9,958 bases of DNA from a virus. Taxonomy: Duplodnaviria; Heunggongvirae; Uroviricota; Caudoviricetes. A program made the translations under genes and the position numbers. The first letter of the stretch is position 1. Every line of letters begins with the position of its first letter. Positions 3,917 to 7,476 of this stretch are shown here, piece by piece. The stretch lies in the IMG/VR virus record IMGVR_UViG_2541047699_000001; one strand, given 5' to 3'. Below the pieces are notes generated by a model, which was not told where the DNA came from, searched no databases, and worked only from the letters and a program-made list of their open reading frames with translations.

Positions 3917-4119
3917 TGAAGACCTTTGCGCTACAGGGCGACACGCTCGACGCCATTTGTGTCCGGTATTACGGGCGCACTGAGGGCGTGGTCGGGGCCG
4001 TGCTCGCCGCAAATCCGGGACTGGCTGAACTGGGGGCGGTGCTGCCACATGGCACCGCCGTCGAACTGCCCGACGTTCAGACCGCGCCCGTGGCTGAAAC
4101 TGTCAATCTGTGGGAGTAA
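3916..4119 (+). CDS. X: Tail protein gpX (small LysM-like protein)
   Basis: ORF 3847..4119 trimmed to the ATG at 3916 (MKTFALQGDTLDAICVRYYGRTEGVV...), giving 67 aa as in P2 gpX; the start overlaps the L stop by 1 nt (TGATG). Confidence 0.85.
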   Translation: MKTFALQGDTLDAICVRYYGRTEGVVGAVLAANPGLAELGAVLPHGTAVELPDVQTAPVAETVNLWE

Positions 4120-5899: not shown

Positions 5900-6329
5900 T
5901 GCCGTCACGGTACTGAAAACTAACCCCGATATGCTGCGGATATTCGTGGATAACGGGAGTATTGCCTCCACACTGGCGACGTCGTTGTCATTCGAAAAGC
6001 GTTACACGCTCAATGTCATTGTGACCGACTTTACCGGTGATTTTGACCTGCTCATCGTGCCGGTGCTGGCGTGGCTGCGGGAAAATCAGCCCGACATCAT
6101 GACCACTGACGAAGGTCAGAAAAAGGGCTTCACGTTTTATGCAGACATCAACAATGACAGCAGCTTTGATATCAGCATCAGCCTGATGCTGACCGAGCGC
6201 ACGCTGGTCAGTGAGGTGGACGGCGCGCTGCATGTGAAGAATATCCCGGAACCCCCGCCGCCGGAGCCGGTCACCCGCCCGATGGAGCTTTATATCAATG
6301 GCGAACTGGTGAGCAAGTGGGATGAATGA
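5862..6329 (+). CDS. R: Tail completion protein gpR
   Basis: 155-aa ORF, position and size as P2 gpR; 5' end overlaps the lysC 3' end. Confidence 0.88.
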   Translation: MLKPDSLHRALTDAVTVLKTNPDMLRIFVDNGSIASTLATSLSFEKRYTLNVIVTDFTGDFDLLIVPVLAWLRENQPDIMTTDEGQKKGFTFYADINNDSSFDISISLMLTERTLVSEVDGALHVKNIPEPPPPEPVTRPMELYINGELVSKWDE

Positions 6330-6774
6330 GTTTAAGCGTTTTGAAGACCGGCTGACCGGACTGACTGAATCGCTGTCACCGTCAGGGCGTCGGCGACTGA
6401 GTGCCGAACTGGCGAAACGTCTGCGGCAGAGTCAGCAGCGTCGGGTGATGGCACAGAAAGCCCCGGACGGCACACCCTACGCGCCACGCCAGCAGCAGAG
6501 CGTCAGAAAAAAGACCGGTCGCGTTAAGCGAAAAATGTTTGCGAAACTTATCACCAGTCGTTTTTTGCATATCCGCGCCAGCCCGGAACAGGCATCAATG
6601 GAGTTTTACGGCGGGAAGTCACCGAAAATTGCCAGCGTGCATCAGTTCGGTCTGTCGGAAGAAAACCGGAAAGACGGTAAGAAAATTGATTATCCGGCGC
6701 GTCCTCTGCTCGGCTTTACCGGTGAGGATGTGCAGATGATTGAAGAGATTATTCTGGCTCACCTCGACCGTTAG
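6322..6774 (+). CDS. S: Tail completion protein gpS
   Basis: 150-aa ORF, position and size as P2 gpS; start overlaps the R stop by 8 nt (ATGAATGA). Confidence 0.88.
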   Translation: MNEFKRFEDRLTGLTESLSPSGRRRLSAELAKRLRQSQQRRVMAQKAPDGTPYAPRQQQSVRKKTGRVKRKMFAKLITSRFLHIRASPEQASMEFYGGKSPKIASVHQFGLSEENRKDGKKIDYPARPLLGFTGEDVQMIEEIILAHLDR

Positions 6775-6840
6775 TTGTGCCATTCCCGACACCTCATCGT
6801 CACATTGCCGCCGGTATGACCCGGCGGCATCCTTCCCGTT
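6775..6840. promoter_or_regulatory. S/V intergenic junction; expected site of the O-operon terminator and the PV late promoter
   Basis: 66-bp gap. Partial dyad TGT(6776..6778)...ACA(6789..6791), with ACC at the canonical N12 spacing; perfect GC-rich hairpin at 6806..6829; no purine-rich Shine-Dalgarno before the V ATG. Confidence 0.4.
6806..6829. repeat. Perfect inverted repeat / hairpin (9-bp stem tgccgccgg / ccggcggca, 6-nt loop tatgac)
   Basis: Read directly from the sequence: 6806..6814 is the exact reverse complement of 6821..6829. Not followed by a T-tract. Confidence 0.6.
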
Positions 6841-7476
6841 ATGAACACTCTCGCAAATATTCAGGAACTCGCGCGCGCACTGCGCAACATGATCCGCACC
6901 GGCCTTGTCGTCGAAACCGACCTTAACGCCGGTCGCTGCCGTGTGCAGACCGGCGGCATGTGCACCGACTGGCTGCAGTGGCTGACCCATCGTGCCGGGC
7001 GTTCGCGCACATGGTGGGCACCTTCCGTGGGGGAGCAGGTGCTGATTCTGGCCGTGGGCGGTGAACTTGACACGGCGTTTGTTCTGCCGGGGATTTATTC
7101 CGGCGATAACCCGGCGCCGTCTGTGTCGGCGGATGCCCTGCATATCCGTTTCCCTGACGGGGCGGTGATTGAGTATGAACCCGAAACCAGTGCGCTTACG
7201 GTAAGCGGAATTAAAACGGCCAGCGTGACGGCTTCTGATTCTGTTACTGCCACGGTGCCGGTGGTCATGGTGAAAGCATCAACCCGCGTCACCCTGGACA
7301 CCCCGGAGGTGGTCTGCACCAACAGGCTGATTACCGGCACGCTGGAAGTGCAGAAGGGCGGGACGATGCGCGGCAACATTGAACACACCGGCGGTGAACT
7401 CTCATCAAACGGTAAGGTACTGCATACCCACAAACACCCAGGCGACAGCGGCGGCACAACCGGGAGTCCTCTATGA
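6841..7476 (+). CDS. V: Baseplate central spike protein gpV
   Basis: 211-aa ORF, position and size as P2 gpV; C-terminal His-rich apex motif ...VLHTHKHPGDSGG. Confidence 0.9.
   Translation: MNTLANIQELARALRNMIRTGLVVETDLNAGRCRVQTGGMCTDWLQWLTHRAGRSRTWWAPSVGEQVLILAVGGELDTAFVLPGIYSGDNPAPSVSADALHIRFPDGAVIEYEPETSALTVSGIKTASVTASDSVTATVPVVMVKASTRVTLDTPEVVCTNRLITGTLEVQKGGTMRGNIEHTGGELSSNGKVLHTHKHPGDSGGTTGSPL

Follow-up and report, generated by a model that had tools for sequence, protein, structure and literature searches.

The junction between genes S and V of P2-like prophages raises the question of what a perfect GC-rich hairpin does when it lies directly ahead of a start codon that has no Shine-Dalgarno sequence, in the short gap which separates two late operons. 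The stretch of DNA analysed here, referred to as the window, comprises 9,958 nucleotides and is, according to its ORF list and the record annotations, the late region of a P2-like (Peduovirus) prophage with the gene order O N M L X Y K lysA lysB R S, followed by V W J I. Gene S, which is labelled S or virion morphogenesis protein in the matching phage and E. coli records, ends at 6774 and gene V starts at 6841, so that the gap between the O and V operons spans 6775-6840 and measures 66 bp, as stated in the preliminary description of this DNA. The S/V junction is a recognised cargo-gene hot spot of P2-like phages (PMC3091744, PMC6823313); the cargo gene orf30 is absent from the junction in the window, which by its sequence reads as the empty-site form of the hot spot. 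Phage Wphi has a junction identical to that of the window, the window-type junction occurs in at least 1024 of 5426 complete E. coli genomes, and most of the close IMG/VR relatives carry the same junction. With about one fifth of the complete genomes, it is thus among the commonest E. coli prophage sequences, and it is left blank by annotation pipelines. The features needed for the following analysis are listed here, all on the + strand.

6322..6774, +, gene S (tail completion), closing the O operon, from the ORF list
6772-6774, +, stop codon TAG of gene S
6775..6793, +, activator (Ogr-type) box, placed by the register shared with the annotated P2 pV, pO and pF sites
6805..6810 (-36..-31), +, -35-like hexamer TTGCCG, 17 bp upstream of CATCCT
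6806..6829 (-35..-12 of pV), +, perfect 9-bp GC-rich hairpin with a 6-nt loop, from complementarity and folding
6828..6833 (-13..-8), +, -10-like hexamer CATCCT; CAnnCT peaks at -13 or -12 in relatives
6834..6840, +, pyrimidine-rich discriminator TCCCGTT, without a Shine-Dalgarno sequence
6841..6841, +, A of the V ATG, at which V-operon transcription probably begins, by transfer from the P2 annotation
6841..7476, +, gene V, coding for the baseplate spike / assembly protein and heading the V operon (V W J I ...), from the ORF list and record annotations

The arms of the hairpin, TGCCGCCGG at 6806-6814 and CCGGCGGCA at 6821-6829, are perfectly complementary and enclose the loop TATGAC at 6815-6820, which bears out the 9-bp inverted repeat with a 6-nt loop, ending 12 nt before the ATG, that had been noticed beforehand. 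The stem starts 32 nt past the S stop and ends 12 nt before the A of the ATG, which leaves 11 nt in between (TCCTTCCCGTT); these include only one purine and lack any GGAG-like run. The 15 nt before the ATG had been called pyrimidine-rich and devoid of a Shine-Dalgarno sequence; this stands as far as composition goes, but the string quoted for it is 13 nt long and not 15. Most of the genes in the window have a recognisable Shine-Dalgarno sequence, and V was rightly said to differ from them in this respect. The calculated dG of the hairpin alone is -18.7 kcal/mol, and both the MFE and the centroid folds of 6775-6860 are dominated by it, with a z of -2.3 in comparison to dinucleotide shuffles, so that the RNA folding proposed as a check came out in favour of the structure. 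Perfect stems of at least 9 bp with loops of 3-10 nt occur three times in the 9958-nt window in comparison to 0.48 expected from shuffles, and the number expected in a 66-bp gap is about 0.003. Given this rarity in shuffles and the retention of the stem in relatives, the hairpin is not a chance feature. A search of 6500-7100 on both strands with the Rfam 15 covariance models gave no match at E-values up to 1. Elsewhere in the window, a second perfect 9-bp GC-rich hairpin is located at 2616-2640 (CGCAGCGGG aagctgc CCCGCTGCG, dG -17.9), inside gene M about 50 nt past the N/M junction and with no T-run after it, which may act as attenuator or stabiliser downstream of the major capsid gene or may have arisen by chance; other perfect stems are one of 9 bp inside R (6172-6192) and one of 8 bp inside X (4035-4059).

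Judged by its motifs, the 66-bp gap that contains the hairpin is a complete Ogr-type late promoter, pV, of the V operon. Transcription from late promoters of the P2 family needs a zinc-finger activator and the C-terminal domain of the RNA polymerase alpha subunit, and it is the alpha subunit that Ogr contacts; we infer the same Ogr dependence for pV in the window, the ogr gene itself being outside it. TTGTG is found at 6775-6779, directly after the S stop, and its TGT (6776-6778) stands at -65..-63 from the V ATG. In its right half the activator box is weak, with either ACA at 6789-6791 with N10 spacing or ACC at 6791-6793 with N12 spacing, in comparison to the published dyad consensus TGT-N12-ACA (PMC3931495), which in this class is centred about 55 bp upstream of the start; P2's own promoter sites are equally loose in the right half-site (CCA, CAA). 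When the window and P2 promoters were aligned by transcription start, the TGT of the window was in exactly the register of P2 pV and within 1 nt of that of pO and pF. The partial TGT...ACA dyad reported earlier at 6776..6791 is thus present, with a 10-nt spacer, and probably represents an Ogr-type activator site, in register with the annotated site of P2.

The sigma-70-type core TTGCCG-N17-CATCCT keeps its positions in relatives, in which TTG peaks at -36 or -35, unrelated AT-rich promoter variants included, and positions -7..-1 contain 1.2 purines on average. With regard to location, pV heads the late operon V W J I H G. A generic promoter scan called no promoter in the gap, which is expected for an activator-dependent promoter and uninformative. 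To describe the group as a whole, 154 V relatives were collected from one-genome-per-species contigs and viral contigs, corresponding to 102 distinct upstream sequences in 61 clusters which are otherwise not alignable with one another. The results showed that TGT is at -65 or -64 in 102/102 of the distinct upstream sequences, and that 82 of them have TGT, TTG and CAnnnT together in register. Another promoter region of the window, the P/O intergenic region at 454-574, was compared with the annotated pP/pO region of P2 over 95 bases, all of which are identical; both have an activator box, around 466-493 in the window, and the P2 pO start corresponds to position 534. The transcript therefore begins downstream of the O ORF start listed at 508, and translation of O probably starts, as in P2, from the ATG at 574.

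The same geometry bears on where the V message begins. Transcription of the V operon in the window probably starts at the A of the V ATG, which would make the mRNA leaderless. In the P2 record AF063097, the 'transcription start site for V operon' is annotated at 10308, which is base 1 of the V CDS, and the start in the window is carried over from this database annotation of a pV whose sequence differs, on the ground that the promoter geometry is the same as in P2 and the promoter-to-ATG spacing is fixed in 102/102 relatives. ATG is the V start codon in every one of the 102 distinct relatives, and no Shine-Dalgarno sequence precedes V in any of the 102 upstream sequences; a promoter-to-ATG distance that never varies, together with the lack of a Shine-Dalgarno sequence in every variant, is what a leaderless design predicts. 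The window itself has the sequence marks of a leaderless gene, i.e., an AUG, no Shine-Dalgarno sequence and CATCCT ending 7-8 nt before the ATG, and a leaderless mRNA would explain the missing Shine-Dalgarno sequence at V. In addition, a purine-free discriminator would be expected to focus initiation on the A of the ATG. The preliminary suggestion of a very short or leaderless V message has therefore become probable through the P2 start annotation and the fixed spacing, and because dozens of cassettes that are otherwise unrelated keep this spacing constant, the one start annotated in P2 can be extended to the group as a whole. A literature search in which relevant older work was not covered provided nothing usable on transcripts of Wphi-type junctions, on 186 p32 or on leaderless P2 V.

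At -35..-12, the hairpin shares five of the six bases of the -35-like hexamer and the first two of the -10-like hexamer, so the overlap with the V promoter that had been considered for it is real with respect to both hexamers. Since the hairpin is upstream of the probable start, it should be absent from the pV transcript, and because it spans -35..-12 it can become RNA only by transcription from upstream; the earlier idea that it controls translation of V from the pV transcript is accordingly not upheld. The most likely role, as suggested by the comparison of relatives, is a terminator or stability function. O-operon transcription arriving from upstream would make the hairpin as RNA, and the hairpin would then be a 3'-end element of this incoming O-operon RNA, acting as a weak or partial terminator and/or a stop for 3' exonucleases, and it would keep the abundant head/lysis message apart from the leaderless baseplate message. 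That the hairpin is such an element for the O-operon RNA, embedded in a leaderless pV, is the explanation we favour, with a confidence that goes a little past even. As the activator box begins right after the S stop and there is no other room, such an element would be squeezed inside pV.

Two sides of this explanation have to be distinguished, namely the form of the structure and its occurrence. As regards form, a stable GC-rich stem-loop of 9 bp stands at the end of a transcription unit, as in a terminator. However, the 8 nt past the stem contain 3 T and form no U-tract, the terminator scan made no call, and the tail (TCCTTCCCG...) scored -2.76 in comparison to -3.6 to -5.8 for eight annotated P2/186 terminators. 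The hairpin is therefore not a canonical intrinsic terminator and could be at most a weak or partial one. As regards occurrence, three non-homologous hairpin designs are found in the S/V gap across lineages: the window type at -35..-12, the 186 type at about -48..-23, and the Kosakonia type between the activator box and the -35 region, the last being a canonical terminator (CGGACA/TGTCCG + T5) with a tail score of -4.57. In the one-genome-per-species set, a stable hairpin was present at 37 of 44 loci where S or another co-directional ORF abuts the promoter in comparison to 15 of 33 loci otherwise, and 7 of these 15 have a co-directional cargo gene slightly further upstream. Counted by cluster, hairpins were present in 26 of 32 with a co-directional upstream gene in comparison to 11 of 29 with a reverse-oriented one (Fisher p = 7e-4, kinship being handled by clustering only). 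The automatic orientation call takes several GC-rich S genes for antisense ORFs; as hairpins are present at all of them, the association is conservative rather than exact. Promoters after reverse-oriented AT-rich cargo genes, P2 among them, are usually without a hairpin, and some clusters with a reverse-oriented upstream gene retain it. Thus, of the terminator-like or RNA-stability role originally put forward, the general form stands as most likely by the orientation association and the three designs, while the strict terminator is weakened by the lack of a U-tract.

In nine contigs of Kosakonia and related bacteria (L011, L013, L015, L016, L018, L019, L021, L022 and L026), V is preceded by an ORF ending in ...INGELVSRW, with no S homologue; this ORF resembles the gpR C-terminus. 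The left arm of the Kosakonia-type terminator (CGGACA-loop-TGTCCG + T5) contains the ACA half-site.

Selection on the hairpin structure is moderately supported, though not proven, by the pattern of changes in relatives. Among 75 distinct sequences of this promoter type the stem is kept, as far as conservation across relatives had been asked for, with both arms conserved and the loop variable. The percentage of cells paired in register was 88.3% in comparison to 27-62% with the partner slid, and the number of double-change cells was 25 in comparison to 12.1 +/- 4.8 in column shuffles, a value that 0 of 500 shuffles reached in a test that can be inflated by relatedness. All double changes are in the three upper pairs (e.g., CG/UG/UA, GC/AU/GU/CG and GC/AU/GU), and the six lower pairs are nearly invariant and so carry no structural information. 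The three upper pairs are paired in 72-95% of true pV contexts in comparison to 25-50% of chance matches to the flanking pattern in viral contigs. Covariation was not significant with the first 44 sequences and became detectable only after the addition of pattern-selected viral contigs, which raised the number from 44 to 75, and RNAalifold kept only five invariant lower pairs with a covariation term of -0.04. The compensatory changes that had been proposed as a check were therefore found, to a modest degree, in the upper three pairs among the 75 sequences, but neither in the lower pairs nor at significance in the 44. With respect to strand, stem-internal G.U exceeds A.C by 26 to 4, which favours RNA of the + strand, and the fold energies showed no difference between + and - (p = 0.32).

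The last two results bear directly on whether the repeat acts as DNA in pV, either as a GC-rich spacer which keeps basal activity low and Ogr dependence strict, or as a palindromic site for a dimeric protein. Its placement between and over both hexamers would suit such a function, as would the 17-bp spacer that fixes the arm-to-arm distance, the retention of the right arm CCCGGCGGCAT even where the left arm no longer pairs with its upper part, the invariant lower pairs and the equal fold energies on both strands. However, the repeat is missing from working pV variants, i.e., P2 and many AT-rich cassettes, which have only TTG + GCAT in common, and is thus dispensable for pV; stem-internal G.T is tolerated far more than A.C (26 vs 4), which fits RNA better than a symmetric protein site; the upper-stem changes are compensated; and the presence of the hairpin tracks upstream-gene orientation, which a purely promoter-internal function does not predict. 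We regard a DNA-level role as unlikely. The orientation association is shared by a reading in which the hairpin insulates translation on read-through RNA by blocking re-initiation at the V AUG, so that the leaderless transcript would be the sole source of V. Only upstream-derived RNA contains the hairpin, which lies between the S stop and the V AUG and 11 nt from the latter, and no relative has a Shine-Dalgarno sequence; if this reading were true, untranslated V RNA might be exposed to Rho. Against this, a 66-nt gap without a Shine-Dalgarno sequence is already poor for re-initiation and the hairpin may add nothing to it, and the reading, which we consider decidedly unlikely as the main function, overlaps the 3'-end explanation and does not exclude it.

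The variable loop, in turn, is central to a proposal that would place the hairpin in a 5' leader of the V mRNA, where it would control translation or stability, with a start upstream of 6806, e.g., from TATGAC as the -10, a hexamer which the loop does resemble. Within the element, conservation is lowest in the loop, no -35 was found 17 bp upstream of TATGAC, and the TGT box would be centred near -43 in comparison to about -56 in the annotated P2 promoters; the loop as a -10 was rejected on these three points. As the P2 promoter of the same geometry is annotated as starting on the ATG, and the promoter-to-ATG spacing is fixed in 102/102 relatives as leaderless design predicts, a leader containing the hairpin appears extremely unlikely. 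It is also conceivable that the hairpin has no function of its own and that its arms are kept by descent and by the use of GCGGCATCCTT... as a homologous-recombination anchor for cargo exchange, given that the core stem never varies and that close relatives with different cargo regain identity with the window inside the right arm, at about -20..-17. Yet the loop and flanks have diverged to saturation while the arms remain complementary across genera, independent cassettes bear their own matched arms (CTAG/CTAG, CTCAG/CTGGG and CCGTTC/GAACGG), and two further non-homologous hairpins fill the same gap in other lineages, which makes a mere anchor very unlikely. An integron-attC-like site, considered for the cassette boundaries in the right arm, was rejected, as no matching architecture was found and homologous recombination at the core suffices.

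The 3'-end element embedded in pV may be taken one step further, to a composite 'terminator-within-promoter' module in which the hairpin would end or release O-operon transcription a few bases before +1 and V would always be translated from a 5'-terminal AUG. We put this forward tentatively and consider it rather doubtful. If true, polymerase released at the hairpin might pass directly to pV, and the three unrelated hairpins in a gap of 66-69 bp would be convergent solutions. The parts are of already known kinds, i.e., a pV late promoter with a leaderless V start (by P2 annotation), an activator box and operon-end hairpins. In the literature searched, of which the relevant older part was not covered, there was no description of the GC-rich hairpin-bearing form of pV, of a hairpin overlapping both hexamers, of the recurrence of three hairpins or of the group-wide promoter-to-ATG invariance. 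Within 66 bp, a stop codon and an activator site would be followed by a full core promoter, with a structured RNA element in it, and by a leaderless start; the junction would thereby offer a natural model of how a low-copy structural protein can be translated without a leader and of how the end of one operon can overlap the next promoter. The practical value is modest: P2-like prophages could be annotated better, and the S/V cargo ('moron') hot spot would gain a defined boundary.

As for this boundary, in the sequences compared the core GCGGCATCCTT seems to mark the limit of recombination at the cargo hot spot. Four viral contigs (L088, L096, L117 and L164), whose V is 95-99% identical, differ in the co-directional cargo genes (271-471 aa) that separate S from V, and each has its own activator box, -35 and left arm. 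In Brenneria bubanii (L072), a tandem repeat of GTGCGTAA x5 is located at about -120..-80 before V, directly upstream of the pV activator box. In P2 (L002, AF063097 9300-10800), the whole gap corresponding to window 6775-6840 is swapped for a terminator, the reverse-oriented orf30 and an AT-rich pV cassette; P2-window identity resumes exactly at the V ATG, and the replacement promoter keeps TGT at -65 and CAATCT at -13..-8.

P2 pV is the closest annotated counterpart of the junction. Its activator site is at 10239-10266 of AF063097, i.e., -69..-42 from the V-operon start at 10308, and it serves the same operon, presumably with the same activator. Common to P2 pV and the window are the activator site before V, TGT at -65..-63, CAnnCT at -13..-8, an ATG at the annotated or probable start and the lack of a Shine-Dalgarno sequence, the -10-like hexamer being CAATCT in P2 and CATCCT in the window at the same position. 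In contrast, the sequence from the TGT box to the ATG is unrelated, AT-rich in P2 and GC-rich in the window, and P2 pV has no hairpin and no TTG at -35. P2 works without the hairpin, and we have counted this against the hairpin explanation. P2 pV also follows a reverse-oriented non-essential cargo gene, orf30, and the O-operon terminator of P2 is separate and adjoins S.

The 186 gap between gene O, the homologue of P2 S, and orf32, the homologue of P2 V, is 69 bp long; we take this junction, which is not annotated in U32222, to be the B-dependent promoter p32. Like the window, it shows TTGTG adjoining the stop codon and GGCATTCT ahead of the ATG, lacks a Shine-Dalgarno sequence and contains a GC-rich hairpin in the gap. 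The 186 hairpin differs in sequence, lies about 10-13 nt further upstream with a -35-like TTGG in its loop, and is not homologous to the window stem. At another 186 junction, that of pJ (L165, U32222 14058-14110), some 10 nt separate the end of terminator t45 from the annotated B-binding site, so that t45 is upstream of the promoter and not inside it, whereas the S/V gap has no room upstream of the activator box.

Compared with the intrinsic terminators annotated in P2 and 186 (tQ, the O-operon terminator, t45, and tI, labelled 'partial'), which are likewise GC-rich stem-loops at operon ends, the stem in the window (-18.7 kcal/mol) is as strong or stronger, but it has no T-run, lies inside the next promoter and has a tail weaker than all eight, the 'partial' one included. 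REP-like elements and operon-end stem-loops are known to block 3' exonucleases and to stabilise 3' ends. The window stem resembles such 3'-stabilising hairpins in being stable and GC-rich, in having no U-tract and in standing at the end of a highly expressed operon; unlike REP-like elements, it is present in a single copy and overlaps a promoter. On the side of the start codon, the naturally leaderless mRNAs of E. coli elements, such as lambda cI from PRM and Tn1721 tetR, have a -10 at 7-8 nt upstream of the ATG and no Shine-Dalgarno sequence, like V in the window. The difference is that cI and tetR are repressor genes, while V, whose start in the window we infer from P2, heads an activator-dependent late operon of structural genes.
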